Positions 841 through 41,727 of a stretch of DNA of 45,435 nucleotides are shown one piece after another. A model generated the notes under the pieces. The model had not been told where the DNA came from and ran no database searches. It saw only the letters and a list, made by a program, of their open reading frames with translations. Source of the DNA: Mariprofundaceae bacterium (GTDB lineage Bacteria; Pseudomonadota; Zetaproteobacteria; Mariprofundales; Mariprofundaceae); assembly GCA_035267815.1 (NCBI GenBank), contig DATFLK010000023.1, forward strand, positions 1 through 45,435. The letters are read 5' to 3'. How positions within the stretch are numbered: position 1 is the stretch's first letter; each line of letters begins with the position of its first letter. A program made the position numbers and the translations under genes.

Positions 841-971
841 GGGAGTCCCTCGCGACCCATCCGTGGGTCGCCAAAATCATGAACATCAGTGATTTATTTT
901 GTGATCAGGGGCGAAACCGCGTTTTCCCTTTAAGTGAATGAATCAGCATACGAAAGTGCTGGTCCATATCC

Positions 972-1592: not shown

Positions 1593-1658
1593 AAGTCTTT
1601 GTATTGCCGATTATTATTCTAGTCTGGTTTGCATCTTCCATATGTGAACACTCAAATT

Positions 1659-6251
<4,593 letters not shown>

Positions 6252-6281
6252 GAATCGATCGGCTTCATCCGTCTCCGATCA

Positions 6282-7382
6282 TCAAATCCGCATCGGCATG
6301 ACGACATAGCGCGACACATCATTGCCCTCCTCCATCACCAAGATGGGGGAGAGGGCATCCTTCAGCGCCATACGGACATGAGAAGCGCCCATGACATTCA
6401 GGGTATCGCGGAGATAGCGGGCGTTGAAACCGACCTCGAGCGCAGGGCCATCGTACTCGACTGAGATCGACTCTTCCGCCTCCTCCTGTTCGGTATTGTG
6501 GGCGGAGATCAGCACCTCGCCGCTGCCGAACTGCAGGCGGACATCGTGAGTGAACTCGTTGGCAACGATCATGATCCTCCGTAACACCTGGTCGAAGGCG
6601 GTGCGCTCCACCCGGACGATGGTCGGGTTACCGGAGGGGATCACATCCTCGTAGTTGGGGAAGCGGGCATCGATCAGCTTGGAGGTCAGGCAGTGGTCGC
6701 CAGCGGTCAGGCGCACCTGGCGCTCGCCGAGGCAGAGCTCCACTTCGCCACCCACCTCCTCGCAGAGCTTGCGTATCTCCATGACGGCCTTGCGCGGTAC
6801 GATCACCTGTGTCGGCTCGACACTCTTGCCCAGCGGGGTGCCGGTCATGCCCAAACGGTGCCCGTCGGTAGCGATCAGATTCAGGCTTCCCTTCTGGTCC
6901 AGCTCGAAAAGGGTACCGGTCAGATACTTGCGTGTTTCGTCACTGGACATGGCGAATGCGGTAGCGCCGATCATGCCGGCCAGGTCGCTGCTCTCGAGCG
7001 ATACGCCGGTGCAGTCGGCATCCTCCTGAATGGCCGGGAAGTCGTCGGCCGGAAGGGTGGCCAGACGAAACTTCGAGCGTCCGCTTTTGATATGCATGAA
7101 CGCATCATCGATCGTCGCCTCGACCTCCGCCTCATTATCGAGCTCCTTGAGGATATCGAAAAGCTTGCGGGCGGAGACTGTGATACTGCCAGGCTCCCTG
7201 ATCGTGGCCGGAACGGAAGTGCGGATTCCCACCTCGAGATCGTTGGCGGTGATGCGAAGCCCCTGATCGGTGGCTTCCAGCAGGATATTGGCCATGATGG
7301 GAACCGTGTGCCTGCGTTCCACAATACTCTGACAGCGTTGAACCGCTTGCAGGATATGTTGTCTGGGCAAGGTGAACTGCAT
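6282..7382 (-). CDS. dnaN: DNA polymerase III beta sliding clamp
   Basis: 366 aa. Full-length beta-clamp-like translation (MQFTLPR...VMPMRI) in the conserved position between dnaA and recF. Confidence 0.96.
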   Translation of the reverse strand: MQFTLPRQHILQAVQRCQSIVERRHTVPIMANILLEATDQGLRITANDLEVGIRTSVPATIREPGSITVSARKLFDILKELDNEAEVEATIDDAFMHIKSGRSKFRLATLPADDFPAIQEDADCTGVSLESSDLAGMIGATAFAMSSDETRKYLTGTLFELDQKGSLNLIATDGHRLGMTGTPLGKSVEPTQVIVPRKAVMEIRKLCEEVGGEVELCLGERQVRLTAGDHCLTSKLIDARFPNYEDVIPSGNPTIVRVERTAFDQVLRRIMIVANEFTHDVRLQFGSGEVLISAHNTEQEEAEESISVEYDGPALEVGFNARYLRDTLNVMGASHVRMALKDALSPILVMEEGNDVSRYVVMPMRI

Positions 7383-7668
7383 GACTGATGACTCCCTTTT
7401 GGTATGAGACCGTATTTATATCAAATGATTAATCGTCATCATAGTGTTTGTGAGTATTGTGAGTAACCTGAAAAAACGAGCCGTATCAGACCATTGAAGC
7501 CGGTCTCGGTTGTGCATGATTGGTACCTGGACCTGGGTATGGATTGGGTACCGGTTTGGGCATCCCTCGTTTGGGAGCATGCATGAGAAGTTGTTCACAT
7601 GATGTGCACATCTTCTGCCTGCACTTATCCAGTGGTTGTTCAGTGTAGATGGGAATGGTCGAAAAGGC
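7383..7668. promoter_or_regulatory. dnaA-dnaN spacer: candidate oriC / dnaN promoter region
   Basis: Largest non-coding gap next to dnaA. Strongly AT-rich tract about 7411-7476. 9-mers two mismatches from the DnaA box TTATCCACA/TGTGGATAA lie at 7458-7466, 7511-7519, 7591-7599 and 7625-7633 (TTATCCAgt). Tandem TGTGAGTA(T/A) at 7449-7466. 19-nt near-palindrome at 7592-7610. No perfect DnaA box. Confidence 0.35.
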
Positions 7669-9000
7669 CTAGGATTTGAGCAGCTGAAGGATGCGTTCCA
7701 CCTCTTCGCGGAACTCGTCCGATTCGCCCATCATCCGTTCCACCTTGCGCACGGCATAGAGGATTGTGGTGTGATCCTTGCCGCCGAAGCGCTCACCGAT
7801 ATCGGGCAGCGACAGGGTGGTCAGATCTTTACTGGCATACATGGCGATCTGTCTTGGGAAGGCGACGTTGCGGGAGCGTTTGGAAGAGCGCATGTCCTGG
7901 ATGCGGATGTTGTAGTAGTTGGCGATCTTCTTTTGGATATCCTCCACCGATACGGCCCGCACCTCCTCATGCAGCAGGTCACGCAGCACATGTTTGGCGA
8001 AGTCCATGTTGATCGTCTTTCCGGTCAGTGTGGCATGGGCGGTCAGCCGGGTCAGTGCCCCTTCCAGTTCACGAACGTTACTGGTGATCCGAGAGGCGAG
8101 AAGATAGGCAACATCCTCCGGCAGGCTGACACCGGCCAGCTCCGCCTTGCGTGCCAGAATCGCCAGTCTTGTCTCCAGGTCGGGCGGCTGGATATCGGCG
8201 ACAAGACCCCAGTTGAAGCGTGATTTAAGTCGCTCTTCAAGGTGGTTCATCTCACGCGGCGAGCGGTCGGAGGTCAGGATGATCTGTTTGCGCACCTCGT
8301 AGAGCGCGTTGAAGGTATGGAAGAATTCCTCCTGCGTACTGGCCTTGCCGGCGATGAACTGGACATCATCGATGATCAGGACATCCACCTGTCGGTAACG
8401 GTGCCGGAACTGCTGAGTAGCGCCGTTTCGGATGGCCGTGATTAGCTCGTTGGTGAAACGCTCGCTGGTGCGATAGGCAATCTTGGTACCGTCCTTCTCC
8501 AACAGGCTGTTGGCGACGGCGTTGATCAGGTGGGTCTTGCCCAGGCCGACGCCACCGTGGATGTAGAGCGGGTTGTAGATCTCGCCCGGCTGGTCGGCCA
8601 CGGCACGGCAGGCGGCGTAGCAGAACTCGTTGCTGGAACCGACCACAAAGTTGGCGAAGGTGAAGCGGGGATCGATAAAGCCGTCGACGCTGCCGGAGTT
8701 GGCTTCGGGTTTGCGTTTGGCTTCGGGCTCCGGCATGACGGCCAGCGAGCTGTCGACACAAAAGGCGACCTGGGTTTCGGACCCGAATTCGCGGGTCGCG
8801 ATTTCCTCGATCTGTTTCTGGTAGCGGTCGCGCAGGCCGTCGAGAAAGAAGCGACTGGGTGTGCAGAGGGTCAGACAGTGCCCCTCGACCCGTACCTGAA
8901 CGGGACGTATCCACGCATCGAACCGGGCTGCCGGCACCTGTTCGGCCAGTATCTCCACGATTTTCTGCCAGTTGAGAGGATTGTCACGACCATCCGCCAT
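7669..9000 (-). CDS. dnaA: chromosomal replication initiator DnaA
   Basis: AAA+ Walker A GGVGLGKTHL, Walker B LIIDDVQF, C-terminal DNA-binding domain (IGERFGGKDHTTILYAVRKV). The track ORF starts at 9033, but the ATG at 9000 (MADGRDNPLNWQKIV...) gives a typical DnaA N-terminus. The start is uncertain by 11 codons. Confidence 0.95.
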   Translation of the reverse strand: MADGRDNPLNWQKIVEILAEQVPAARFDAWIRPVQVRVEGHCLTLCTPSRFFLDGLRDRYQKQIEEIATREFGSETQVAFCVDSSLAVMPEPEAKRKPEANSGSVDGFIDPRFTFANFVVGSSNEFCYAACRAVADQPGEIYNPLYIHGGVGLGKTHLINAVANSLLEKDGTKIAYRTSERFTNELITAIRNGATQQFRHRYRQVDVLIIDDVQFIAGKASTQEEFFHTFNALYEVRKQIILTSDRSPREMNHLEERLKSRFNWGLVADIQPPDLETRLAILARKAELAGVSLPEDVAYLLASRITSNVRELEGALTRLTAHATLTGKTINMDFAKHVLRDLLHEEVRAVSVEDIQKKIANYYNIRIQDMRSSKRSRNVAFPRQIAMYASKDLTTLSLPDIGERFGGKDHTTILYAVRKVERMMGESDEFREEVERILQLLKS

Positions 9001-9052
9001 AATCCCAATAGTACATACTCCACCCGGATGCATCTATGCCCGAAACAGTCGC

Positions 9053-9080
9053 TTGACAGCATCCACACCTTCCCTACCAT
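9053..9080 (+). promoter_or_regulatory. putative sigma70-type rpmH promoter with DnaA-box-like element in the spacer
   Basis: TTGACA (9053-9058), a 16-nt spacer, then TACCAT (9075-9080), about 30 nt upstream of the rpmH ATG. gcATCCACA (9059-9067) matches 7/9 of the DnaA box. Motif-level evidence only. Confidence 0.3.
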
Positions 9081-9110
9081 TCGCTGCCCTTATTTTCCCA
9101 GGAGTAGGCC

Positions 9111-9245
9111 ATGAGTTTTACGTACAAACCAAGCCGGGTACGCCGCGCACGCACACACGGGTTTCGCGCGCGCATGTCGACCCGTTCCGGACGCGCCATC
9201 ATCAATCGCAGACGTGCCAAAGGGCGCAAGCGCCTGACACGCTGA
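9111..9245 (+). CDS. rpmH: 50S ribosomal protein L34
   Basis: Not in the ORF track (44 aa). Hand translation gives [44 protein letters not shown], a textbook L34. GGAG at 9101-9104 lies 6 nt before the ATG. Stop TGA 9243-9245. Confidence 0.95.
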
Positions 9246-9592
9246 AACACGGATTTCCACCATGCTTTCGGCTCCGGACGAAAGCGGATTTTGGCGCTTT
9301 GAGGCGCGGGCGCAGGTTCACCATGGGTGGCCTGCGCTTTGTTTATACACCCAACCGGGCATCGCATGCCCGTCTGGGCCTGGCGGTATCGAGGCGGTAT
9401 GGTAATGCCGTGCGGAGAAACCGCTTGAAGCGGCAATTGCGGGCATTCTTCCGCCAGAGTCCCATGCGTGAGCTGGAAGTGGATATTCTGGTCACGCCCG
9501 TGACCGACTGGACACGGATGGAGAATGTGTATAGTGACATGCACAGGGGGCTGGAGCGCATTATGCGGCGATTGCAGCGGGAGGCATCGTGA
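9242..9592 (+). CDS. rnpA: ribonuclease P protein component
   Basis: RNR motif region [24 protein letters not shown]. The conserved N-terminal FP..FRL....F block lies upstream of the only in-frame ATG (9323). I therefore propose a CTG at 9242 overlapping the rpmH stop (alternatives TTG 9299, ATG 9323). The track ORF from 8972 is an artefactual extension. Confidence 0.8.
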
Positions 9593-9822
9593 GACGGGTG
9601 ATGATCGGTCTGATCCGCTTCTACCAGTGGGCCATCTCGCCGCTGATGCCGGCGCGTTGTATCCACTATCCGACCTGTTCCCAGTATACAGTTGAATCCA
9701 TCCAGCGGTTCGGCCCGGTATACGGGCTATGGCTGGCGATTCGCCGTCTGTTGAAATGCCACCCCTTTGCCCGGGGAGGTTATGACCCGGTGCCGGAGAA
9801 GCGGCATATTCTTTCCCGGTAA
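9589..9822 (+). CDS. yidD: membrane protein insertion efficiency factor YidD
   Basis: 77 aa. IRFYQWAISP, YPTCSQY and KCHPF.RGGYDPVP blocks. GTG 9589 overlaps the rnpA stop (GTGA). ATG 9601 is an alternative start. Confidence 0.9.
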   Translation: MRRVMIGLIRFYQWAISPLMPARCIHYPTCSQYTVESIQRFGPVYGLWLAIRRLLKCHPFARGGYDPVPEKRHILSR

Positions 9823-9844
9823 CGGCCGGAGGAGTTGATAGTAT

Positions 9845-11440
9845 ATGGAACAGCGTAACATTATTTTGGCGTTCGCCCTCTCAATGGCCGTGCTGCTGGG
9901 CTGGCAGCTGATGCTGCCGAAGCAGGAGAATGGTAAATCCGCGGTATCGCAGGGCAGCTCGCTGCCGGGCAAGGATGGAAGCCCGGCAGCGGCGCAGACG
10001 GCCGCCAAGCCGGCCTCCCCGGCATCGTCCACTGCGACGGCTGCAGCCGACTCCTCCGCAACATCCGGTGTGACCCCGAAAGAGGTAAAAGCGGAGAAGA
10101 TCGGCGAGCTTTCCAACAACGTGGTGACGATCGACGTCAACTCCCGCGGTGCTCTGGTTTCGGCCCGAATGAAGAATTATCGCGAATCGATCAAGCGCGG
10201 TTCGCCGCCGGTGGCGGTGCTTCACCAGTCGAAGGCGAGGGCCTCCTATATCAATGCCGGTATCTTGGGCCATGAGACCCCGACCTTCCATGTTGTTGCC
10301 GCCGACCGGCATTCGCTGACCATGCAGGCCACGCTGTCGGATGGCCGGGTCTGGGAGAGGAAGTTGACGCTGGCACCCGGTTCCTACGACCTCCATGAGG
10401 AGGACAGGATTCGCAACGGCAAGGGACTCAAGGTGTTCTACCAGGTGGTGGCGCGCAACCCAGACTCCGAGGGCTCTTCACGTTACGAGTTCCGCGGTGC
10501 GGTAGCGCTTCTGCATGACAAGCTGAAGACCACCAAGTACGAGGACTTGGACAAGGATGGCGCCATGCAGGTCTCCGCCAAGGGCGGGTGGACCGGTATC
10601 ATGAACCGCTACTTCATCGCTTCGGTGATCGGTGACCAAAAGCTTGGCAACCGCTACTATTTCAAGGGCGATGGTCAGGTCTATCAGGCCGGCCTGATCA
10701 CCAAGGGAGAGCAGGCCGGGAGCGATGCCGTCTACCACATCCAGATGTATGTCGGTCCGAAATCGATCCCGATTCTCAAGAAGCTGAACGTCGGCCTGGA
10801 GCGCTGTGTCGACTTCGGCTGGATCGCCTTCATCGCCAAGCCGATGCACAGCTTCCTGCTGCTGCTGCACAATTATATCTCCAACTTCGGTCTCTGCATT
10901 ATTCTACTGGTGGTGCTGATCAAGCTTATTTTCTTCTGGCCGACCAAGAAGTCGTACGAATCGATGGCCGGTATGCGCAAGCTGCAGCCCGAGATGCAGC
11001 GCATGAAGGAGCAGTACGGCGACGATCGCCAAAAGATGGGCCAGGAGATGATGGCGCTCTATAAGAAGCACAAGGTCAACCCGATGGGCGGCTGCTTGCC
11101 GATTATCATCCAGATCCCGGTCTTCTTCTCGCTTTACAAGACGCTTCTGATCTCCATCGAGCTGCGCCACGCGCCCTTTTTCGGATGGATTCACGATCTT
11201 TCGGCCATGGATCCCTTCTATGTGCTGCCGGTCCTGATGGGCGCCTCGATGCTGGTGCAGCAGAAGCTGAACCCGGCACCACCGGACCCGATGCAGGCCA
11301 AGATCATGCGCTTCATGCCGATTATCTTCACGGTGATGTTTCTCTTCTTCCCGTCCGGCCTGGTGCTCTACTGGCTGGTCAACAACGTCCTCTCGATTGC
11401 CCAGCAGTGGCATGTCATGAAGGCGCAGAAGGCCATCTAG
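9845..11440 (+). CDS. yidC: membrane protein insertase YidC
   Basis: 531 aa. N-terminal TM, an Ala/Ser/Pro-rich linker, a large periplasmic domain, and the C-terminal insertase core (KLQPEMQRMKEQYGDDRQKM, GCLPIIIQIPVFFSLY). Conserved rnpA-yidD-yidC order. Confidence 0.95.
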   Translation: MEQRNIILAFALSMAVLLGWQLMLPKQENGKSAVSQGSSLPGKDGSPAAAQTAAKPASPASSTATAAADSSATSGVTPKEVKAEKIGELSNNVVTIDVNSRGALVSARMKNYRESIKRGSPPVAVLHQSKARASYINAGILGHETPTFHVVAADRHSLTMQATLSDGRVWERKLTLAPGSYDLHEEDRIRNGKGLKVFYQVVARNPDSEGSSRYEFRGAVALLHDKLKTTKYEDLDKDGAMQVSAKGGWTGIMNRYFIASVIGDQKLGNRYYFKGDGQVYQAGLITKGEQAGSDAVYHIQMYVGPKSIPILKKLNVGLERCVDFGWIAFIAKPMHSFLLLLHNYISNFGLCIILLVVLIKLIFFWPTKKSYESMAGMRKLQPEMQRMKEQYGDDRQKMGQEMMALYKKHKVNPMGGCLPIIIQIPVFFSLYKTLLISIELRHAPFFGWIHDLSAMDPFYVLPVLMGASMLVQQKLNPAPPDPMQAKIMRFMPIIFTVMFLFFPSGLVLYWLVNNVLSIAQQWHVMKAQKAI

Positions 11441-12902: not shown

Positions 12903-13769
12903 ATGTCTGTAAAGCACCCGGTTATTTCAATTACCGGATCATCTGGTGCCGGTACGAGCACGGCAAAGGTTGCACTGGAGCATATCTTCCGTCGCGAGAA
13001 GATCTCGCCGGCAGTGGTCGAAGGTGACTGTTTCCACAAGTTTGATCGCGCCGGTTTCAAGGCGGCAGCGGCCGAATATGAGCAGAAGGGCAAGCGTCTG
13101 AGTCATTTCTCTCCCGATGCGAACCTGTTCGGGGAACTGGCACAGCTGTTCAAGGATTACGGCGACTCGGGCCAGGGCACGGCCCGCAAGTACCTTCATG
13201 ACGAAGCAGAGGCGGAGCCCTACGGGCAGAAGCCGGGTACCTTCACGCCGTGGGAGACTATTGGTGCCGACAGCGACCTTCTTTTTTATGAGGGTTTGCA
13301 CGGCGGTGTGCCCGAGGTGGCACCGTATACCGACCTGTTGATGGGCATTGTGCCCGTGGTCAATCTCGAATGGATTCAGAAGATTCACCGCGATACGCAG
13401 ATGCGCGGCTATTCGCCCGAGGCGGTGGTCGATAACATCCTGCAGCGAATGCACGACTACGTGCACTACATCACGCCGCAGTTCGGCCATACGGATATTA
13501 ACTTCCAGCGCGTGCCGCTGGTGGATACTTCCGATCCCTTCATCGCCCGCGATGTGCCGACACCGGACGAGAGCCTGGTGGTGATCCGTTTCAGGGAGCC
13601 GCAGAAGTGGAACGTCGACTTCCCGTGGCTGGTCTCCATGCTGAAGGACGCCTTTATGTCACGGCGTAATACGCTGGTTGTCCCGGCCGGCAAGATGATG
13701 CTGGCGATGGAGCTGATCCTTGCGCCGATCATTCACGACATCATGGAGGCGAAGCGCAAGGCCTCCTGA
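12903..13769 (+). CDS. prk: phosphoribulokinase (bacterial type)
   Basis: 288 aa. P-loop ITGSSGAGTST followed by a bacterial PRK-like sequence along its whole length (FYEGLHGGV..., NLEWIQKIHRD). AGGGG RBS 6 nt before the ATG. Its own terminator lies downstream. Confidence 0.9.
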   Translation: MSVKHPVISITGSSGAGTSTAKVALEHIFRREKISPAVVEGDCFHKFDRAGFKAAAAEYEQKGKRLSHFSPDANLFGELAQLFKDYGDSGQGTARKYLHDEAEAEPYGQKPGTFTPWETIGADSDLLFYEGLHGGVPEVAPYTDLLMGIVPVVNLEWIQKIHRDTQMRGYSPEAVVDNILQRMHDYVHYITPQFGHTDINFQRVPLVDTSDPFIARDVPTPDESLVVIRFREPQKWNVDFPWLVSMLKDAFMSRRNTLVVPAGKMMLAMELILAPIIHDIMEAKRKAS

Positions 13770-21000: not shown

Positions 21001-22233
21001 TCAGGTCAAACGGCCGTAGGAGTGAAGGCCCGAGAGATACATGTTGACGCCGATGAAGCAGAACAGCGTCACCAGGAAACCGGCAACGGTCCACCAGGCC
21101 AGCGACCGCCCCTGCCAGCCGTGCGAGACGCGTACATGCAGGTAAGCACCGTAGGTGAGCCACACGATCAGCGCCCAGGTCTCCTTCGGATCCCATGACC
21201 AGTAGCCGCCCCATGCCTCGGCTGCCCAGGCGGCACCCAGAATGGTCGCCAGCGTGAAGGCAGGGAAGCCGATGGAAACGGCCTTGTATGCCAGCTGGTC
21301 CAGCTGATCCAGGGTCGGGAAGGAGGCCAGGAACTTGGCGTTGCTTCCCTTGCGCTCCAGGCGGTCACGGACCAAGTAGGCGGCGCCGGCGGCGCAGGCT
21401 ACGGCGAAGGAGCTGTAGCCGATGAAATTCATGGGAACATGAATCTTCATCCAGTAGGACTGCAACGCCGGTACCAGCGGCTTGATGTCGGCTTGACCGA
21501 CGGAGCTCAGCCAGATGCCGAAAAAGACACCGGCGGAGACAATGGTCAGCACAAAGGCACCCATGGAACGAACGTTGTAGCGCCGCTCGAAGTTCAGGTA
21601 GATCACGCTGGTGATACAGAAGAGCAGGATGAAGACCTCATAGAGGTTGGAGACCGGAGCGTGACCGATGTCGAGGCCGAGCAGGTAGGACTCGTACCAG
21701 CGGAGAAGCAGGGATGATCCGCCCGCATAGACGCCGGCCCAAGCGCTGGCTGTTGCAAGCTTGCCGACCAGCGAGTTCGGTGCGAACAGATGCGTGATGT
21801 AAAGCAGCGCGGCGGCCAGGAACATCACGTTCATTGTCATGATGATGCGGCCCGAGACCAGGTTGGACTGATCGTTGTAGGAGACCTGTGCCTGTGCAGG
21901 CTCGAACTGCGCCAGCAGGAAGGTCAGCAGGATCATCATTAGTGCGCCGTCAAACCAGGACACCATGTTCATGGCCAGTCTGGATTCGGCCAGTCGCGGC
22001 TTGGCCAGGCCGAGCGCCGTAGCACCGGAGAGGCCGGCGACGGCGCCGATACCGATCCAGCTTGCTGAGCTGGCAGTGAGGAAATGAAGTAGTCCGTTAG
22101 ATTGGTAACCCGCCGCGCCGAACATGGCATAGGCAGCCACGCCGACGATAGCGCCGACATAGCCATAGAACCGGGCGAAGCCGGGAAGCCCTCGGTTTAT
22201 GGCATCAAGCCGATGAGCAGTGATCGCAGTCAT
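21001..22233 (-). CDS. ccsA: cytochrome c biogenesis protein CcsA/ResC (System II heme handling)
   Basis: 410 aa polytopic membrane protein. Contains the Trp-rich WGGYWSWDPKETWALIVW motif and conserved flanking His residues. Follows resB. Confidence 0.9.
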   Translation of the reverse strand: MTAITAHRLDAINRGLPGFARFYGYVGAIVGVAAYAMFGAAGYQSNGLLHFLTASSASWIGIGAVAGLSGATALGLAKPRLAESRLAMNMVSWFDGALMMILLTFLLAQFEPAQAQVSYNDQSNLVSGRIIMTMNVMFLAAALLYITHLFAPNSLVGKLATASAWAGVYAGGSSLLLRWYESYLLGLDIGHAPVSNLYEVFILLFCITSVIYLNFERRYNVRSMGAFVLTIVSAGVFFGIWLSSVGQADIKPLVPALQSYWMKIHVPMNFIGYSSFAVACAAGAAYLVRDRLERKGSNAKFLASFPTLDQLDQLAYKAVSIGFPAFTLATILGAAWAAEAWGGYWSWDPKETWALIVWLTYGAYLHVRVSHGWQGRSLAWWTVAGFLVTLFCFIGVNMYLSGLHSYGRLT

Positions 22234-22244
22234 ATGCGCCTCCT

Positions 22245-23918
22245 TTATTGCTGATGGACCAGCATCTTTTCAAGATTGCTTAAAGTCCGCTGGAACTCCT
22301 GTTCGAATCCCAGTCGGTTGCGGTTGGTCATACCGCCAACTGTCAGGCGGACCTTGTCCGCCATCGGTTCAATTACCAGCCACAGCTTGCGATGTGGCAG
22401 GTAGAACATAATGCACAGGCCGATCACGAGGATGGCGCTGCCGATCCAGATCACATTCATACCCGGATCGCGCGTTAGCTCGAGGCCAGTGTAGTACACC
22501 TGATGGTAGTCCTGCAGGATGGGAATGAAGGGCCAGGGCACGTTCGACAGATTGTTCATCGCCTGCAGGACGCGGATGCCCATGTGCTGGAAGTTGGGCG
22601 GCAGCTTGTTGCCGAACACCTCGTGCAGTGCCGCCCTGAAGGCCTGCATGTTGGCCTGCTGCTCGTTGCCCTCCTTGCTGTCTATCAGGTGTTTGCCGAA
22701 GGCCTGCAGCAGCTTCCAGTCGTTCGGATTGCTGAAGTCGAGGCCGAGCGAGAAGGGCTGAAAATCCTTCTTGTCGCCCGACAGCGAGACCATTATCAGG
22801 GAACCGACGTTCTTTCCCTTCTGTTCGAAAGGATTCATGAAGGTTTTGACCTTGACCGGTTTCAGTCCCGGGCCGCGCATGATGAAGGTCACTGCCGGCC
22901 CCAGATCCTTGAAGTTTTTCGGTTCACCCGGCCCCGCCATGTTCTCGACATTGAAGGCGCTGAAGCCGGTGAACTCCATCGACACGCCGGTCTTGGGATC
23001 GCGGTAGGTGCTGTAGACCCGGCTGTCGACCGTGCTGACGCTGCCATCGTTGAGATGGAACAGCTTCATCTTGATGTCCGATCCACCGTCCCCAAAGCTG
23101 GCCTGATAGATGCGGACTCCCTTGTAGATCAGGGGATGGTTGACTTCGATATCCTTGTTGTGAACGACCTCTTTGCCGTGATCATAGATGGATAGGTTGC
23201 TGCGGAAGGTCTTCGGCATGCCGGTGGGGTAGAAGTCGATGTAGAACTTGTTGCACTGGATCGTGAAGGGCATGGTCATCTTTTCGGTCTTGGCGCCCTT
23301 GAGAAAGCGGATGGTGTTCTCCTGGCCGCCTCCCTCGATCACGTTCATGGTGCCCCGGAAACCGAAATGAACGCTGATCCAGCCGCCGCTCAGAATCACG
23401 AGGATAGCGGCATGCGTCAGAATATAGCCCCACTTGTTCCAGCGGCCCTTGTCGGCGCGGAGGTAGGTACGGCCATCCTTTTCGGCTGATTTGATCTCCC
23501 AGTCCCGCAGTTGATCCTCGAGGTGCGCCTGTACAGTGGCGACATCCGTCTTCTCTAGGTCCCAGTGCTTTAAATGGTGGAAGCGTTGCAGGGACTTGTC
23601 TTCGATCGTCACCTTGCGCTTGCGCATCTCCCGAAGCATGCGGGGGGTATTGCGCCACAGGCATACGGCCACGGAGACCATTAGGAAGCCGAGCAGCGTC
23701 AGGAACCACGGGGAGTGGTACATGTCGAACAGCCCGAGGCTGCGGAAGGTCCAGTACCAGAGCGGTCCAAATTGAGCCAGATAGTCGGTCTGGGCCTGAT
23801 TCTGCAACAGGACGGTGCCGATCACGGAGGCAATGGCCAGCAGCACCAGCAGGACGATGGCGAGCGACATGGAACCCAGGCGATCAAAGTAGGGTTTAAG
23901 CCAGGCAGGAGTATTCAT
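22245..23918 (-). CDS. resB: cytochrome c biogenesis protein ResB/Ccs1 (System II)
   Basis: 557 aa. N-terminal ResB-like TM region (FDRLGSMSLAIVLLVLLAIASVIGTVL, DMYHSPWFLTLLGFL), a large soluble domain and a C-terminal TM. Paired with ccsA. Confidence 0.87.
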   Translation of the reverse strand: MNTPAWLKPYFDRLGSMSLAIVLLVLLAIASVIGTVLLQNQAQTDYLAQFGPLWYWTFRSLGLFDMYHSPWFLTLLGFLMVSVAVCLWRNTPRMLREMRKRKVTIEDKSLQRFHHLKHWDLEKTDVATVQAHLEDQLRDWEIKSAEKDGRTYLRADKGRWNKWGYILTHAAILVILSGGWISVHFGFRGTMNVIEGGGQENTIRFLKGAKTEKMTMPFTIQCNKFYIDFYPTGMPKTFRSNLSIYDHGKEVVHNKDIEVNHPLIYKGVRIYQASFGDGGSDIKMKLFHLNDGSVSTVDSRVYSTYRDPKTGVSMEFTGFSAFNVENMAGPGEPKNFKDLGPAVTFIMRGPGLKPVKVKTFMNPFEQKGKNVGSLIMVSLSGDKKDFQPFSLGLDFSNPNDWKLLQAFGKHLIDSKEGNEQQANMQAFRAALHEVFGNKLPPNFQHMGIRVLQAMNNLSNVPWPFIPILQDYHQVYYTGLELTRDPGMNVIWIGSAILVIGLCIMFYLPHRKLWLVIEPMADKVRLTVGGMTNRNRLGFEQEFQRTLSNLEKMLVHQQ

Positions 23919-28986: not shown

Positions 28987-31146
28987 TCAGGAAAGTTTTT
29001 CCATCAGCTGGTTGTAGACGCGGTAGGTGTTGCGCCCCGCTTCCTTGGCGGCGTACATGGCCTGGTCGGCGCAATTGAGCAGGATATCGCCCTCGGCGGC
29101 ATGATCCGGCTGGACCGCCATGCGCCAGCGGTCCGCCTCTTCGTCTGATGTCGTGTTGCCGGTGCTTACCGCGATACCGATGCTGGCGCCGACGATGCAG
29201 TCCTGGCCGGCGATGCGGATGGGACGGGCTAACTCCTTGACGATCTGGGAGGCTACCCGTTCCGCATCACCGGCCTCATGCAGGTTGGTCAGCACGACGG
29301 CGAACTCGTCGCCGCCGAAGCGTGCCGCCGTGTCCGTTTCGCGCAGGCAGTTCAACAGGCGATGGGCGATCTCGCGCAGGGCCTCGTCGCCGGCATCATG
29401 TCCCAGCTCGTCGTTGATGGGTTTGAAGCGGTCGAGATCGACCATCAGGACGGCGATCTTCCGGTTGTTTCGCTTCGCCTGGGCGATGGCCTGTTCCAGC
29501 CGGTCGAAGAAGAGCAGGCGATTGGGCAGGCCCGTGAGTGTATCGTGCTGCGCCAGGTGCATTGCCTCCTGTTCGGCGCGGACCTGGTTGGTCACATCGA
29601 TGGCGTAGGCGCGGACATTGTTGTTGTTGGCATTGGGGTGGAGTTGCCAGATCATGATCTCGTCGCCCACTTCGAAGGAGACGGTATCGATCGAGATGTT
29701 CTCTTCACGGCAGATATTGACCGCCTCGCGGAAATCCTCGGGCAGGATCTCGTCGATCCTGTCGGCCGAGAGGATATGCAGTTTCAGGTACTCCAGTGTC
29801 GCCGGATTCATGTACAACACCTCGGCGCTATTGCCGTCCACCTCGATGATGGGGAAGGGGTTGAGCTCGGGAATGCTGGAGAGCCACCCGATCTCCTCCT
29901 GCCGCTGCCGGTCCTCGGTAATATCCTCGGAGATCTCGATCAGCTCCTGCAGTCCTCCCTCATCGTCCCGCAACGGGATCAGGCTGATGCGGGCGATCCA
30001 CTCCGAGCCGTCCTTCCTCTTCCGGGTGGTGATTTCGGCATAGGGGCTGCCGACCTTCTTTAACAGCCGCTCGATCCGCTTCCGGAAACCCGTTTCGGAG
30101 TGGCTGCGCTCCGATGCAGGATAGAAGGCCTTGTAGGAGAGTCGTTTGTACTCGTCCCGCGAATAGCCGGTGATGGCCAGCATGCGGGCATTGACGTAGG
30201 TGATGCTGCCGCTGCCGTCATAGACGACCACTCCGTTCGAGAGCCCGTCCAGCAGGTGCAGGTAGTAGTCGGAGAGCGCCTTGGATTCGGCGATGTGGTC
30301 CACCAGTCGCCGGGTCATGTGGTTGAAGCTCATACCAAGTCGGCCGATTTCGTCGCGCCGCCTGATTGGGGCACTGGCGGAGAAATCACCCTCATCGATA
30401 CGCCGGGCGGTGTCGTACAGTGCCTGAATCGGCTGGGTCACCTGCCGGCGGATGAGAAAGAAGAGGCTGATAGCCAGCAGTAACGTGGCGCCGATACCAA
30501 TGCCGATACTTTTTCTGTGGGCCTGGGTGATGGCGTCCTCCGCATGCTTCAGGGAGGTGGTGATACGCAGCACACCGCGGATGGGGGAGGCGTCGTAGCC
30601 ATGACAGGCGTTGCAGGCATTCAGTTTCTTAATGGGCAGAAGATAGGTCAGGTGTCCGGCATCCTCGTCGCGGATGCTGACCCGATGGCCCGCTACGGCC
30701 TGCCGGAACTTGGTGGCGGGGATATCGGTCACCGTGTGGGCCGGCAGAGCCGGTCGGGCGAACACCTTGTTGCCCAGAAAGCGGTTGACCTGATGGATCG
30801 TCTTCAGATCGAGAAACGCCTCATTGCCGTTGCGTCGGACGACCTCCGCCTTGAGGACGCCGGTCTCTTTCGATACCCGTTCGAGCCAGTCGCGCGCCAA
30901 CGGGCCGTTGCCGGTCAGCATCAGGGTCTGCAGGCTGGCCAGCAGACCTTCGGCCATGAAGTCCGCGCGGGTCTCCTCCTCCTGCATGATCGACCGCCGC
31001 TGCTGCTGAAGCTGGATACCCATCGACAGCATCATGACCAGCGCGAGTAGAACGGTCAGGGAGAGCACCACGCGGGTGCCGAGTCGTTCCCGGAACGGTA
31101 ACCGTTCCGCCCCCGCGGAACTCCCCGGAAGATCGCCCTTCATCAA
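28987..31146 (-). CDS. diguanylate cyclase: periplasmic CxxCH sensor - HAMP - PAS - PAS - GGDEF
   Basis: 719 aa. TM1 VVLSLTVLLALVMMLSMGI, then a roughly 150-aa periplasmic segment containing CNACH (nt 30601-30615). TM2 IGIGIGATLLLAISLFFLI, HAMP (DEIGRLGMSFNHMTRRL), two PAS-like segments, and a GGDEF domain (RFGGDEFAVVL) with RETD I-site spacing. Confidence 0.9.
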   Translation of the reverse strand: MMKGDLPGSSAGAERLPFRERLGTRVVLSLTVLLALVMMLSMGIQLQQQRRSIMQEEETRADFMAEGLLASLQTLMLTGNGPLARDWLERVSKETGVLKAEVVRRNGNEAFLDLKTIHQVNRFLGNKVFARPALPAHTVTDIPATKFRQAVAGHRVSIRDEDAGHLTYLLPIKKLNACNACHGYDASPIRGVLRITTSLKHAEDAITQAHRKSIGIGIGATLLLAISLFFLIRRQVTQPIQALYDTARRIDEGDFSASAPIRRRDEIGRLGMSFNHMTRRLVDHIAESKALSDYYLHLLDGLSNGVVVYDGSGSITYVNARMLAITGYSRDEYKRLSYKAFYPASERSHSETGFRKRIERLLKKVGSPYAEITTRKRKDGSEWIARISLIPLRDDEGGLQELIEISEDITEDRQRQEEIGWLSSIPELNPFPIIEVDGNSAEVLYMNPATLEYLKLHILSADRIDEILPEDFREAVNICREENISIDTVSFEVGDEIMIWQLHPNANNNNVRAYAIDVTNQVRAEQEAMHLAQHDTLTGLPNRLLFFDRLEQAIAQAKRNNRKIAVLMVDLDRFKPINDELGHDAGDEALREIAHRLLNCLRETDTAARFGGDEFAVVLTNLHEAGDAERVASQIVKELARPIRIAGQDCIVGASIGIAVSTGNTTSDEEADRWRMAVQPDHAAEGDILLNCADQAMYAAKEAGRNTYRVYNQLMEKLS

Positions 31147-31201
31147 CGCGCATCGAGCCCGCGGCCGCGGGCAGACAGGAGACGAAGGGAGACGGGTGGG
31201 A

Positions 31202-31951
31202 TCATTCGTCGGTGGATGAAAGCTTGGCCCAGGCGCCGCTCAAACCGAGTGCCTCGAGCAGCGCGGTGTGATCCGCGAAGCGGCCGATCAGTCTGCAGGT
31301 CGGTTGCGGATCCAGCTTGAGCAGCGTCGGCGTGGCGACGATGTGATCGGCCGCCGCGCTGCGCGGATGCTTGATGACGTCAAGCACCTCCAGATGGTAG
31401 TGCCCTCCCCAGGTTTTCAGGGCGGCCCTGATGTTCTCCTGTGCCTGTACGGAGTTGGCGGTCTGACCCGCGACGTAAAGCCTCAGGTCGAGAGCCTGCC
31501 CGGTATGTACGGCCGCCTCCGGAACCGGTTGTGCCGCTGCGGCGGGGTCCTGAAGAAGACTGTCGGCGATCTCGCGCAACTGGGCTGCCGTGATCGGTTT
31601 TCGGCACACCTCGAAGGCCAGGTCGTTGGCCCGCTCCGGCCGTATCAGGTCGTCGAGCGAGCGGTCGAAGGCCGTCACCATGTAGACCGGCACCTTTGGC
31701 AGGAAATCGCGCAGGCACTCCAGCGTTTCGATGCCGTTCAAGACCGGCATCATCAGATCGAGGAAGATCAGATCCGGGGTGAGGGCCTTGGCGCATTCGA
31801 TACCTTCGCGGCCGCTTTGTGCGGTGTCGAGGGTATAGCCGGAGTCCTCGATGGCCGCTTCGTACAGCTCGAGCGCATAGATATCATCATCGATTGCCAG
31901 AATATGTTTGGCCTGTTTGTTCACACCTGCCCCCATGCCCTTGTCCGACAA
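31202..31951 (-). CDS. response-regulator receiver domain fused to a KaiB-like domain
   Basis: 249 aa. REC residues are intact (DDD, LIFLDLMMP, MVTAF, CRKPI). After an Ala/Pro linker, aa about 153-237 (nt 31241-31495) read LRLYVAGQTANSV...LDVIKHP...IVATPTLLKL.P.P...LIGRF, matching KaiB conserved blocks. The start codon is uncertain (TTG 31951, ATG 31936 or GTG 31924). Confidence 0.85.
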   Translation of the reverse strand: MSDKGMGAGVNKQAKHILAIDDDIYALELYEAAIEDSGYTLDTAQSGREGIECAKALTPDLIFLDLMMPVLNGIETLECLRDFLPKVPVYMVTAFDRSLDDLIRPERANDLAFEVCRKPITAAQLREIADSLLQDPAAAAQPVPEAAVHTGQALDLRLYVAGQTANSVQAQENIRAALKTWGGHYHLEVLDVIKHPRSAAADHIVATPTLLKLDPQPTCRLIGRFADHTALLEALGLSGAWAKLSSTDE

Positions 31952-38840: not shown

Positions 38841-39464
38841 CTAGGGCTTCGTTCCCTGTTCGCCTGAGCGGTGCGTCCTTTCATGCTGTGCGAAGTCGCA
38901 GCGCACCTTTTCCAAACTTTCGTGGTAGGCCTTGGCATCGCCGTAATCGAGGAAGCGGCTGTAGTGCGAATGGGCACCGGCCACGCGCCGGGCATGCTTG
39001 ATGGGACACCAGTACTGCTCGGTGCGGGCGGCGATCTCGCGTACATAGGCGATCAGGCCGTTGCCGTAACCGCAGTAGAGGCAATTGAATTTCTCGATGA
39101 TGTTCAGGTAGCCAAGCTGGTGGCGGTCGAAGATCAGGTGATCGGAGCGACGTACCTTCGGGATGCCGTAAACCGGGAAGCAGATGGCCTGGTAGAGGGT
39201 GATGAACAGATCCAGCAGCAGGAAGGGGACAATCAGTGCATAGATGAACGGGGCGGTCAGAAGCACCAGCGGCCGCGCCTCGATGATGTAGCGGAAGAGC
39301 TTGGTCTTCAGCGCCCTGTGCTGCTCCAGAACCTCCTGTTCGAAGTGCACCTTGCGCCCGACGAGTTCGAAGCGCAGCTCCTCCCGTCGCCGTGCCAGCT
39401 CTACCTCGAGATCCTCCTCCAGTTCCCGGATGCGTTCGATCAGGTTTTCGATTTGTCCGTTCAT
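38841..39464 (-). CDS. hypothetical protein: N-terminal coiled coil, hydrophobic hairpin, C-terminal Cys/His-rich domain
   Basis: ATG 39464 is preceded by AGGAG. 207 aa: a charged heptad-like N-terminus (IENLIERIRELEEDLEVELARRREEL), a roughly 35-residue hydrophobic stretch, then CLYC...WCPIKH (CxxC-x21-C-x3-H). I could assign no family from memory. Confidence 0.62.
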   Translation of the reverse strand: MNGQIENLIERIRELEEDLEVELARRREELRFELVGRKVHFEQEVLEQHRALKTKLFRYIIEARPLVLLTAPFIYALIVPFLLLDLFITLYQAICFPVYGIPKVRRSDHLIFDRHQLGYLNIIEKFNCLYCGYGNGLIAYVREIAARTEQYWCPIKHARRVAGAHSHYSRFLDYGDAKAYHESLEKVRCDFAQHERTHRSGEQGTKP

Positions 39465-39556
39465 ATGGTCTCCTCTCCGATCCCACAATAGGCTAGGCGG
39501 GTGGGTTCGTCAGCTCTGCCGCGATCGTGCTATCCTTGATTTCGGGTGACAGGAAG

Positions 39557-40525
39557 ATGGCGATGGCTGCAGACGAGCTGAATGTGGTGCTGGGCGCGGG
39601 GCCGGTCGGACGTGCTCTGATTTCGCTGCTGCACGGCAGAGGGGTGCCTCTGCGCGTGGTGACCCGAAGCGGCTCGGCGGATGTGCCGGAGGGGGTCGAG
39701 GTGGTCGCCGCCGACCTGAGTCGGGCCGACGAGGCGGTACGGGCCTGCGCCGGTGCGTCGATCGTCTATTCGTGCGTCGGTATCGGTTACCGCGAATGGC
39801 CCGAGCGCTGGCCGCCGCTGATGGCCGGCATGCTGGCGGGTGCCGAGGCCGCCGGAGCCCGTTTCATCTTCGCCGACAATCTCTACATGTACGGCCCGAG
39901 GGAGGGGCTACTGACCGAGGCGTTGCCGCTGACCGACTATGGTCGCAAACCGGCCACACGCGCCCATATCACCCGCATGTGGCAGGTGGCCCATGCCGAG
40001 GGGCGTGTGCAGGCAGCTGCTGTGCGCGCCAGTGACTTTTACGGCCCTTCCGTACGGAAGGCGGTGCTCGGCAATGCCACCTTCGCCCGCATCGTCCAGG
40101 GTATGGGGGCGCTCTGCCTCGGCGATGTCGATCAGCCGCACAGCTTCACATATGTGCCGGATATTGCCCGCGCTCTGGTCACGATCGGGGAGGCCGACGA
40201 GACAGCATGGGGTCGCGCGTGGCATGTGCCTAATGCTCCGGACCGGACGGTACGCGAGATTCTGACAATGTTTGCCGAGGCGTCCGGACAGGAGTTGAAG
40301 ATCAGCGCGTTGCCGCGCTGGCTGCATGCGATTGTCGGGTTGTTCGACGAGGATATGCGTGAGCTGAAGGAGATGCGCTACCAGTGGGAGTGGCCATTCT
40401 GTGTCGATGCTTCGGCTTTCACCGATGCCTTCGACATGGAGGTTACCCCCTTCGACGAAGGAATAGCACAGACGCTTGCCTGGTATCGCGAGCGGCTCCG
40501 CCAGCGGAAAGAAGCTCAGAAGTAG
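39557..40525 (+). CDS. NAD(P)-dependent epimerase/dehydratase-family (SDR-like) protein
   Basis: Rossmann N-terminus VVLGAGPVGRALISLL followed by an extended-SDR-like body. Start is ATG 39557 or 39563. The 3' end overlaps the convergent OMP gene by 10 nt. Confidence 0.75.
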   Translation: MAMAADELNVVLGAGPVGRALISLLHGRGVPLRVVTRSGSADVPEGVEVVAADLSRADEAVRACAGASIVYSCVGIGYREWPERWPPLMAGMLAGAEAAGARFIFADNLYMYGPREGLLTEALPLTDYGRKPATRAHITRMWQVAHAEGRVQAAAVRASDFYGPSVRKAVLGNATFARIVQGMGALCLGDVDQPHSFTYVPDIARALVTIGEADETAWGRAWHVPNAPDRTVREILTMFAEASGQELKISALPRWLHAIVGLFDEDMRELKEMRYQWEWPFCVDASAFTDAFDMEVTPFDEGIAQTLAWYRERLRQRKEAQK

Positions 40526-41727
40526 GCGCGAACCTCCGCCAGAAGCATGGCGGGGTAGCTGCCGAACTCGCTTTTCAGCACCGTTCCCCGAGGCCGGCGG
40601 CCGACGGGGAGTACACCATTGAGCACCAGTTCCGCTTCGTCGGCGAGGGAGTAGACGGTATTCATCGACAGCAGCCAGGAACCGTCGTCGATATTGCGAA
40701 TGGCGACGGCATCGCCCTTGAGCAGGGGCGTGAATTCGTAACCGCCACCCAGCGCCAGGTAGCGGCGGCCCGCGTAGCTGCCGCCGGTGGCGGAGGGTCC
40801 GACCGTCGTGTAGCCGGCCACGTTGGTGGCGCCCGCGCCGTGGTAGTAGTACTCCGCTCGGAGATCGAGGCTGCTGGCGAAGCGGTGTTCGATCCCGCCG
40901 GCGAACTCGATACGCCGGTGACCGCCCGTATCGCGGCGGACATGCCCCTCCATGCGCAGACCCAGCCAGTCGAACAGCTCCCCCTGAATCGAACCGCCGA
41001 CCAGATTGCTCCGGCGGACCCGGCCGGCCAGCCAGGCCCATTCGATCCCCCGTATGACGGTGGAGTAGCGCGCCACCATGCCGGTGCGCTTCGCATCGGG
41101 CGCGTTGCGCCAGCCGCCGGCCCGGGTGGCGTCGCGGCTGTATCCGGCCGTTGCGATCAGCGACAGCTGGGACAGCGCACCGAGTCGCACCTCGGTGCGC
41201 AGTGCATCCACCCCCGGTTTGAAGGTGCGGTAGAAGGTCTGGGCTGCGAAGGGAGCGAAGAGATCGTTGGGAACGAAATAGAAAGTGGTGGCGAGGTTGA
41301 TCGCCTGCCTGCCCGCGATGACATCGACGTTACCCTCTGTCCAGCGCAGGTTGAAGCGGTCGATGGCCAGATGATTGTAGCGACTGTCGCGACCACTGCG
41401 GCCGAATTGCCACTCGGCGATGCCGCTGCGTTCGACGCCGGCCGTGGCGGTTGTATAGCCGGTCATGAAGGCGGGCAGCGAGGTTTGGTAGGCATTGAAC
41501 TGCCAGGCGAGGTGTGCGCCCTCGTGGCCCTCGGTGATCAGACGGGCGAGGCCACCCAGCCCCTGTTCATTGCGTTTCGGATAGAGCGGGGAGGCCGGGT
41601 TGCGGTCGGCCAGCGCGAAACCGCGCAGCAACATGCGGGCACCGCCACCCTGCCATGTGGCGAAGGCGTGCGCCGGCAGCGGCAGCAGAAGGAGCGCCGG
41701 AAGCAGCAGATGCCGCCATCGACTCAT
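40516..41727 (-). CDS. outer-membrane beta-barrel protein (porin-like), last gene of the Lol-like ABC operon
   Basis: 403 aa. Signal peptide MSRWRHLLLPALLLLPLPAHA|F, alternating beta-strand pattern rich in G/Y/R, and a C-terminal beta-signal ending AEVRAYF. Start overlaps the ATPase stop (ATGA). Confidence 0.7.
   Translation of the reverse strand: MSRWRHLLLPALLLLPLPAHAFATWQGGGARMLLRGFALADRNPASPLYPKRNEQGLGGLARLITEGHEGAHLAWQFNAYQTSLPAFMTGYTTATAGVERSGIAEWQFGRSGRDSRYNHLAIDRFNLRWTEGNVDVIAGRQAINLATTFYFVPNDLFAPFAAQTFYRTFKPGVDALRTEVRLGALSQLSLIATAGYSRDATRAGGWRNAPDAKRTGMVARYSTVIRGIEWAWLAGRVRRSNLVGGSIQGELFDWLGLRMEGHVRRDTGGHRRIEFAGGIEHRFASSLDLRAEYYYHGAGATNVAGYTTVGPSATGGSYAGRRYLALGGGYEFTPLLKGDAVAIRNIDDGSWLLSMNTVYSLADEAELVLNGVLPVGRRPRGTVLKSEFGSYPAMLLAEVRAYF

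Follow-up and report, generated by a model that had tools for sequence, protein, structure and literature searches.

KaiB is among the best-studied metamorphic proteins; what it does beyond the cyanobacterial clock has hardly been studied, and the literature sees it as an accessory of KaiC. In the complex of fold-switched KaiB (fsKaiB) with the CikA pseudo-receiver (PDB code 5jyv), the KaiB fold works together with a CheY-like fold. Fold-switched KaiB also binds directly to KidA's N-terminal PAS domains, KidA being a protein composed of four PAS domains followed by GGDEF and EAL domains (Kim et al., PNAS 2022; PMC9478674). KaiB has been found solely together with full-length KaiC, and the N-terminal extension of the elongated KaiB proteins contains no recognisable domain (Schmelling et al., 2017; PMC5520375); the KaiB-4 domain of elongated KaiB is constitutively fold-switched (Wayment-Steele et al., 2023; PMC10808063). 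KaiB-like domains of the SasA type are reported to be absent outside cyanobacteria (PMC5520375), and in non-cyanobacteria a histidine kinase or GGDEF/EAL gene nearly always comes after a kaiC–kaiB cluster (Ramlibacter genome paper; PMC3164672). Here, we describe a gene on a contig of 45,435 nucleotides from a Mariprofundaceae bacterium (DATFLK010000023.1, analysed over its whole length and referred to as the window) that encodes a receiver (REC) domain joined to a KaiB-family domain. This REC-KaiB protein is the fused form of a widespread receiver-plus-KaiB module that resides in two-component and cyclic di-GMP (c-di-GMP) loci and not in Kai clock operons.

The REC-KaiB gene (31202..31951, minus strand) was delimited from its open reading frame (ORF), the codon-position GC content of that frame and Pfam matches to both domains. 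Counted from its TTG start, the product has 249 residues, and the frame is taken to be coding because the GC content is 0.77 at third codon positions (GC3) against 0.42 at second positions. The gene caller chose an ATG at 31936 (244 residues), while the closest homologue, which begins MSNQAKHIL, points to a GTG at 31924 (240 residues); the true start is likely to be one of these two, and neither domain is altered by the choice. The receiver (residues 17–128; 31568..31903, minus strand) matches Response_reg (PF00072) with an E value of 6.8e-19 and 68.5 bits (cut-off 30.2), and its catalytic quintet of D21, D22, D65, T93 and K118 is complete, the residues lying in the motifs DDD (21–23), LIFLD65LMMP, VT93AF and RK118P, with D65 (codon 31757-31759) as the phospho-acceptor. 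In the AlphaFold2 (AF2) model, this half is predicted to follow the (βα)5 order, and a Foldseek search places the Spo0F, CheY and YycF receivers at target-normalised TM scores of 0.79–0.86. Since the full set of catalytic residues is kept, a pseudo-receiver of the CikA or KaiA N-domain type was ruled out, and no kinase domain of the HisKA/HATPase_c type was detected in the protein by Pfam, so that the architecture is not that of SasA.

The receiver is followed by an Ala/Pro-rich linker (residues ~129–156; 31484..31567, minus strand) with the sequence DPAAAAQPVPEAA, assigned from the sequence and from the AF2 model, in which residues 137–150 have a predicted local distance difference test (pLDDT) score below 50; linker length and composition differ among the members of the family alignment. 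The remaining C-terminal part matches the KaiB family (PF07689) over residues 157–231 (31259..31483, minus strand) with an E value of 7.2e-19 and 67.7 bits (cut-off 27), the modelled fold reaching to about residue 245, and a comparison of the KaiB half by itself with the PDB gives solved KaiB chains with E values of ~1e-15. An earlier, sequence-only reading of the window, made without database searches, had described a complete phospho-receiver with these motifs, an Ala/Pro-rich linker and a KaiB-like C-terminal segment, and had suggested that the product be compared with the Response_reg and KaiB profiles; all three parts are present and both profile matches lie far beyond chance. Judged by sequence, the protein is a true receiver followed by a true KaiB-family domain. 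A search of the PDB found no solved structure that covers both halves.

Within the KaiB family, the domain shares 43–44% identity with the clock KaiB of S. elongatus and T. elongatus and is nearer to these than to most other REC-linked KaiB domains, its median identity being 27% to the fused and 33% to the split members of the module found in GTDB (see below). The NCBIfam KaiB equivalogs TIGR02654 and NF006798 gave 60.3 and 62.3 bits, which do not reach their cut-offs of 145.3 and 110.

AF2 models were computed for the full-length protein and for the KaiB domain alone. The fold search with the full-length model gave receiver matches only, and the KaiB fold was therefore placed from the domain-only model. 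In both models the KaiB domain adopts only the thioredoxin-like, fold-switched topology, with pLDDT scores of 84–93 in the switch region; the sequence-only reading had recommended a structure prediction of this domain in ground-state and fold-switched topologies. The closest structures to the domain model in Foldseek include Legionella KaiB (PDB code 4kun; TM score 0.91), fsKaiB in KaiC/KaiA complexes (5jwr_B; TM score 0.90, root-mean-square deviation 1.4 Å), KaiB-4 (KaiB-TV4; 8ubh; TM score 0.77), KaiB-RS on KaiC (8fwj) and N-SasA (6x61, 1t4y), and no ground-state KaiB structure appears among the top 50 matches. AF2 is biased toward KaiB's fold-switched form, and the thioredoxin-like state of the domain hence stays a prediction. 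The sequence determinants point in the same direction. Aligned to T. elongatus KaiB, the window domain has Ala at the G89 position, the same change as in the fold-switch-locking G89A mutation of clock KaiB, and Gly at the D91 position, its ...ALLEALGL aligning with ...KVLIALRL of the fold-switch-locked mutant G89A/D91R. The clock-type G89/D91 pair ('G..D') is found in none of 44 distinct fused sequences, 35 of which have Ala at the G89 position, and in two of 32 split KaiBs. The domain is thus predicted, from modelling, to be held in the thioredoxin-like, fold-switched form and not in the ground state, and phosphorylation-driven fold switching appears unlikely.

The extent of the family depended strongly on the search. 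A word-indexed protein search returned only about eight REC+KaiB proteins, an exhaustive HMMER search at least 35 clusters (at 50% identity) of 205–250-residue proteins that match the whole two-domain profile, and a scan of the GTDB species representatives, with a seven-sequence alignment as the query, 80 loci. These loci hold 73 modules, namely 41 fused REC-KaiB genes and 32 split modules in which a standalone receiver (122–169 residues) is followed by a standalone KaiB (86–116 residues) at a spacing of −28 to +151 nucleotides; the split modules come from ~32 species of many phyla (L016-L021, L023-L025, L027, L032, L039, L056, L058, L060, L062, L068, L071, L073, L074, L076, L077, L081, L083, L084, L086-L091 and L093, with the match near position 10001 in most). 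That fused and split forms coexist is Rosetta-stone evidence for a joint action of REC and KaiB. The catalytic residues equivalent to D21, D22, D65, T93 and K118 are kept in all 41 fused and all 33 split receivers. Among the hosts are Methylomonas, Methylobacter and Crenothrix, Gallionella, Sideroxydans and Ferrigenium, Rhodoferax and other Comamonadaceae, Rhodospirillaceae, Legionellales, Desulfobacterales, Syntrophales, anammox and other Planctomycetota, Bacteroidales, Marinimicrobia, Dadabacteria, Aminicenantes, Ignavibacteriales and Omnitrophota. The idea that the architecture is extremely rare, which the first search would have allowed, was overturned by the HMMER search and the GTDB scan.

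In public databases, the members from cultured organisms are annotated merely as 'response regulator', 'CheY-like chemotaxis protein' or 'hypothetical protein', and no dedicated NCBIfam model for REC-KaiB exists. No published description of a receiver–KaiB protein or of a REC/KaiB gene pair was found in a literature that largely lacked subscription journals, nor did that literature yield an account of kaiC co-occurrence in Methylomonas, Gallionella or methanotrophs. The family is sizeable and uncharacterised, being made up of response regulators whose output domain is unstudied. The sequence-only reading had left it open whether the architecture was already characterised; the combination is not rare, as it is widespread over many phyla in fused or split form.

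The clade of the window protein (60–80% identity) is itself rare, being represented by a few short metagenomic contigs and one identical 9.6-kb contig; a metagenome scan aimed at this clade returned only the identical contig and contig VAOX01023126, and no close relative of the window protein was found among the GTDB species representatives. In a rough neighbour-joining tree of the KaiB domain, calculated with no support values, fused forms lie in several places (one large clade of Methylococcales, Gallionellaceae and Comamonadaceae, the separate window clade and scattered singletons), and the clock and kaiC-linked KaiBs nest among the REC-linked ones, which suggests repeated fusion or fission and repeated exchange of partners. 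Candidatus Anammoxibacter has a split REC/KaiB pair immediately upstream of, and co-oriented with, a fused REC-KaiB gene (L022:9016-9754 and 9893-10633), a tandem duplication of the module that comprises both forms. The representative search also returned a 247-residue protein (P0138) with two tandem KaiB domains and no receiver; KaiB concatenation of this kind has been ruled out for the cyanobacterial elongated KaiB (Schmelling et al.; PMC5520375).

The gene neighbourhoods of the 73 modules were surveyed using Pfam on representatives and local hidden Markov models (HMMs) on all neighbours. The recurrent layout has three genes, with the histidine kinase first, REC-KaiB in the middle and a PAS-bearing effector last. 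A co-oriented kinase gene lies directly upstream in 35 of the 41 fused and 11 of the 32 split modules, and in the fused loci the stop and start codons of the two genes often overlap. On the downstream side, a co-oriented GGDEF/EAL gene follows directly in 20/41 fused and 4/32 split modules and a co-oriented kinase gene in 9/41 and 4/32, respectively; most of the downstream kinases of fused modules are hybrid kinases, as they also carry a receiver. A GGDEF/EAL gene adjoins on the opposite strand in 12 split modules and in none of the fused ones, and for split modules of the Rhodospirillaceae type this divergent PAS-GGDEF-EAL gene is the sole conserved signalling neighbour. On the representatives, Pfam identifies the upstream partners as CHASE3–histidine kinase or Pkinase–GAF–histidine kinase proteins and the downstream partners as PAS-GGDEF-EAL, REC-PAS-histidine kinase or REC-PAS-HD proteins. 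A PAS domain is present in 44 of 50 adjoining partner proteins as against two of 35 upstream kinases of fused modules. The sequence-only reading had raised the question of whether REC-KaiB genes generally adjoin GGDEF genes, and in 36 of the 73 modules a GGDEF/EAL gene is indeed the direct neighbour.

KaiC is largely missing from this setting. A tblastn search of the window with S. elongatus KaiC (a query that scores 1148 bits against PDB entry 1u9i) found no kaiC at E <= 1e-3, although the same search detected a Pfam-confirmed kaiC in another locus as a positive control, and none of the ~40 window ORFs has a KaiA or KaiC match in Pfam; the absence of both genes from the 45 kb had been correctly called. 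Among the 73 modules, tblastn located kaiC within 10 kb of just two (L074 and L023), and in both it sits in a separate, canonical kaiB–kaiC pair, so that a canonical kaiC beside the orthologues, which would have made the gene look like part of a Kai operon, is not the rule. The KaiC independence proposed earlier thus holds at the level of gene neighbourhoods only. On equivalog scores, kaiC linkage and fold-switch determinants alike, the window domain does not qualify as an orthologous clock KaiB. At the two exceptional loci the kaiC–kaiB or kaiB–kaiC pair lies a few kilobases from the REC/KaiB module (L074:6913-9038 and 10010-10713; L023:3596-4450 and 5558-6048), and a link between kaiBC and REC/KaiB systems is possible in some lineages.

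Two upstream kinases are large multidomain proteins. In Methylomonas sp. TEB (L037:4849-9969), the protein has ~1,700 residues and combines Ser/Thr protein kinase, AAA_16 (STAND-type ATPase), TPR, GAF, HisKA and HATPase_c domains, with equivalents in ~22 Methylococcales loci, and in a Bacteroidales metagenome-assembled genome (L024:5184-9983) a fusion of CheB methylesterase, CheR methyltransferase, multiple PAS domains and a histidine kinase (1,599 residues) lies upstream of a split module.

In the window, the partner is a membrane diguanylate cyclase of 719 residues (28987..31146, minus strand; Pfam and orthologue alignment), composed of a transmembrane segment, a periplasmic domain with a CxxCH motif, a second transmembrane segment, a HAMP domain (231–282), a PAS domain (295–413), a region of residues ~413–525 and a GGDEF domain (532–666+; PF00990, 164 bits). 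Its RFGGDEF signature and the RETD motif (an RxxD I-site) five residues upstream are both kept in the full-length orthologues. The spacer between the two genes (31147..31201, minus strand) follows from the ORF boundaries, its 55 nucleotides and the shared orientation agreeing exactly with the sequence-only reading; no terminator-like hairpin or promoter-like site was seen in it, and the two genes are probably co-transcribed. In the window clade, relatives at 61–80% identity all have a HAMP-PAS-GGDEF gene directly downstream wherever the contig extends that far: L007 and L012 carry the whole gene, in L010 the end of the contig truncates it and in L008, L009 and L011 it is cut short, and the spacers in L012, L007 and L010 are 18, 40 and 62 nucleotides long, respectively. 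The two genes therefore travel as a cassette, their pairing being kept although L007 has different outer flanks. The functional tie to the cyclase that had been suggested is supported by this conservation in L007, L010 and L012 together with the GGDEF/EAL neighbours across the wider family. In another metagenomic relative, REC-KaiB is followed by a nucleotidyltransferase/HEPN pair (Polbeta, HepT-like) with no signalling gene (L013:591-2090).

The periplasmic domain of the cyclase (window 30502-31014, minus strand) was recognised from its CxxCH motif and a weak similarity to sensor domains. The motif, CNACH (residues 178–182; 30601..30615, minus strand), would serve for haem c attachment, a role in keeping with the System II cytochrome c biogenesis genes of the window (21001-23918), and is invariant in an alignment of four orthologues, between two predicted transmembrane segments. 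The domain matches Pfam Mcp40H-20_sensor (PF21563) weakly (E value 0.003, 18.3 bits, cut-off 27), a class of periplasmic haem-c PAS-like sensors of the Geobacter GSU0935/GSU0582 type, and matches a putative chemoreceptor sensor (PDB code 3b42), a Geobacter haem-c PAS-like domain, with an E value of 0.14 and with the CxxCH motifs aligned. Two weak matches that agree, with CxxCH aligned, make a haem sensor plausible; of the 'heme-sensor GGDEF' neighbour proposed before, the GGDEF, HAMP and PAS domains and the CNACH motif are present, and the sensor label has these two matches behind it. The most conserved stretch among the orthologues is the region of residues ~413–525 (window 29572-29908, minus strand; orthologue alignment), in which no Pfam family was matched; a second PAS-like domain may lie here, and the region is a docking-site candidate.

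These observations lead us to propose that REC-KaiB is an adaptor gated by phosphorylation: its KaiB domain would bind the PAS-bearing cyclase encoded next to it and so modulate the synthesis of c-di-GMP. We give this explanation an even chance. A histidine kinase, encoded directly upstream in most members and elsewhere in the genome in the window clade, would phosphorylate D65 of the receiver, and phosphorylation would change the packing of the receiver against the KaiB domain, or release the latter. The KaiB domain, kept constitutively in the fold-switched, thioredoxin-like state that binds partners, would upon being freed or repositioned bind the PAS-containing cytoplasmic part of the co-transcribed HAMP/PAS/GGDEF cyclase. 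This contact would tune c-di-GMP synthesis and merge the phosphorelay input with the cyclase's own periplasmic, probably haem or redox, input. The binding of fold-switched KaiB to the PAS domains of KidA provides the precedent that supports this proposal, and the KaiB–PAS contact, its control by phosphorylation and the direction in which the cyclase is affected are inferred by analogy with KidA and the CikA pseudo-receiver. Several points weigh against the proposal. The enrichment of PAS domains among partners is weak evidence because PAS domains are common in signalling proteins; the window clade has no adjoining kinase and hence no candidate phosphodonor at the locus, so that the phosphorelay input that had been postulated corresponds to the usual family arrangement and, in the window clade, lacks that adjacency. 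Directly downstream, about a quarter of the fused and a half of the split modules lack both a c-di-GMP gene and a kinase, which implies that the target is not uniform, and the identity to clock KaiB leaves room for binding to a KaiC encoded elsewhere.

That last possibility, in which the KaiB domain would dock on a KaiC hexamer as KaiB or N-SasA does and so couple two-component and c-di-GMP signalling to a KaiC timer or stress ATPase, draws on the domain's identity to clock KaiB, which is above its identity to most other REC-linked KaiBs, on its top structural matches with KaiC-bound fsKaiB and N-SasA, on the kaiB–kaiC pairs at loci L074 and L023, which exceed the chance expectation, and on the report of KaiB solely in genomes with full-length KaiC (PMC5520375). 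We nevertheless consider it rather unlikely: kaiC is absent from the window and from the 10 kb around 71 of the 73 modules, canonical kaiB is operonic with kaiC, unlike REC-KaiB, the equivalog scores of 60–62 bits are far below the cut-offs of 110 and 145, and it is kinases and PAS-bearing effectors that are conserved as partners. If the kinases were themselves the target, REC-KaiB would be a regulator of the DivK or CheY type or a phosphate sink, with the KaiB domain serving dimerisation or kinase docking and not cyclase targeting. KaiB proteins form dimers and tetramers, the upstream kinase of the fused loci, with its often overlapping codons, fits such a scheme, and the kinases with a second receiver downstream in nine fused loci suggest branched phosphorelays; however, the window clade has lost the adjoining kinase and kept the cyclase, and the split modules of the Rhodospirillaceae type keep just their divergent PAS-GGDEF-EAL neighbour, which leaves this scheme a little less probable again.

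The sequence-only reading had itself envisaged a metamorphic switch in which phosphorylation drives the KaiB fold change. KaiB is the only family known for this fold switch and its sequence blocks are well conserved here, yet the G89/D91 determinants are missing in all 44 distinct fused sequences, Ala occupies the G89 position, both AF2 models are thioredoxin-like with a confidently modelled switch region, ground-state KaiB is missing from the 50 best structural matches and the KaiB-4 domain of cyanobacterial elongated KaiB is likewise constitutively fold-switched (PMC10808063). The switch as formulated is not supported by this evidence and we regard it as improbable. By far the least probable is a redox-active thioredoxin-type domain that senses thiol redox state or passes it to the cyclase. 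The thioredoxin fold, the thioredoxins among the structural matches and the probable haem sensor of the neighbouring cyclase would suit such a role, which was rejected because the CxxC motif is missing: the active-site position reads LYVAGQTANS, as in KaiB, and the sole cysteine (in PTCRL) is not conserved in the family. Taken with the gene order, the adaptor acting on a PAS-bearing cyclase is the explanation that we retain.

The window as a whole represents the chromosomal origin region with housekeeping genes (Pfam). It carries dnaA (7669-9033, minus strand), dnaN, recF, gyrB, yidC, mnmE, gidA/B and parA/B, along with purD/purH/purM/purN, NAD kinase, recN, htpG and a MacB/LolA-like transporter cluster. 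The GC skew changes sign at ~6 kb, beside the dnaA–dnaN–recF–gyrB cluster (window 1-10000), which is consistent with a chromosomal replication origin in the window. Because the flanks are housekeeping genes of the oriC region and kaiC was not found, a fragment of a Kai operon was ruled out. Local HMMs detect exactly one REC, one KaiB and one GGDEF domain in the window and no histidine kinase or EAL domain, so that with respect to its kinase the window REC-KaiB is an orphan regulator. A phosphoribulokinase gene (window 12903-13769) and System II cytochrome c biogenesis genes (ResB and CcsA; window 21001-23918) suggest an autotrophic, cytochrome-c-rich proteobacterium. Two further well-supported coding ORFs (38841-39488 and 40516-41727, both on the minus strand; 215 and 403 residues, GC3 ~0.8) match no Pfam family.

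A large family that is labelled mere 'response regulator' thus has a KaiB domain as the output of a phosphorylatable receiver, and its conserved gene order wires it to sensor kinases and PAS-GGDEF/EAL enzymes. This gives KaiB domains outside the clock a specific function that can be put to the test, in which c-di-GMP turnover would be under phospho-gated control, and provides a genomic counterpart to the contacts of KaiB with KidA and with pseudo-receivers that were found experimentally. In the window organism, it suggests that one diguanylate cyclase receives both a periplasmic haem or redox signal and a phosphorelay signal. More tentatively, and with the balance of probability tilted against it, the KaiC-free module of receiver, KaiB, histidine kinase and PAS-bearing c-di-GMP enzyme, with KaiB as a permanently thioredoxin-like, phospho-controlled adaptor, might represent the older state; the contacts of clock KaiB with the CikA pseudo-receiver and the KidA PAS domains would then be inherited from this two-component role, and recruitment to KaiC and metamorphism would be secondary. 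Methylomonas and Ferrigenium are culturable systems in which to ask whether KaiB-type adaptors predate KaiC or work without it, and if hosts such as Methylomonas lack kaiC, the published rule that KaiB occurs only with full-length KaiC would be overturned.

Comparison with the described systems places REC-KaiB close to several of them. The clock KaiBs of S. elongatus and T. elongatus (fsKaiB; PDB codes 5jwr, 5jwo and 5jyt) belong to the same Pfam family and, at the identity given above, share the blocks LYVAG-T-NS, DV, ATPTL and IG with the window domain, their β2 strand YALKVIDV corresponding to YHLEVLDV; the window domain differs in being fused to a receiver, located away from kaiC, below the equivalog cut-offs and without G89/D91. 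Legionella pneumophila KaiB (Lpp1115; 4kun) and KaiB-4 (8ubh) are atypical or non-clock KaiBs that proved to be thioredoxin-like when solved, as is predicted for the window domain. The Legionella protein, encoded in a kaiBC operon, is standalone, unlike REC-KaiB, and the elongated KaiBs, known from cyanobacteria only, have an N-terminal extension of ~150 residues with no recognisable domain where REC-KaiB has a canonical receiver.

Among the signalling partners of the clock, SasA offers a likeness in that its KaiB-like domain has a permanent thioredoxin fold and gives a two-component protein its docking module (6x61 and 1t4y); there it is N-terminal to a kinase and docks on KaiC, whereas the KaiB domain of REC-KaiB is C-terminal to a receiver. 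The pseudo-receivers of CikA and KaiA differ from the window receiver, which is catalytically complete and covalently linked to its KaiB domain, the two being encoded adjacently in the split members. A further parallel is the pairing of KaiB with KidA, in which a KaiB-fold domain is likewise combined with a PAS-bearing c-di-GMP enzyme, the partners of the REC-KaiB family being mostly PAS-GGDEF-EAL proteins. The cyanobacterial pairing was identified by pull-down within a KaiC clock, whereas for REC-KaiB it is the operon that encodes the pairing, a receiver is attached and kaiC is absent from the vicinity, and the cyclase of the window, in contrast to KidA, has no EAL domain and is bound to the membrane with a CxxCH domain.

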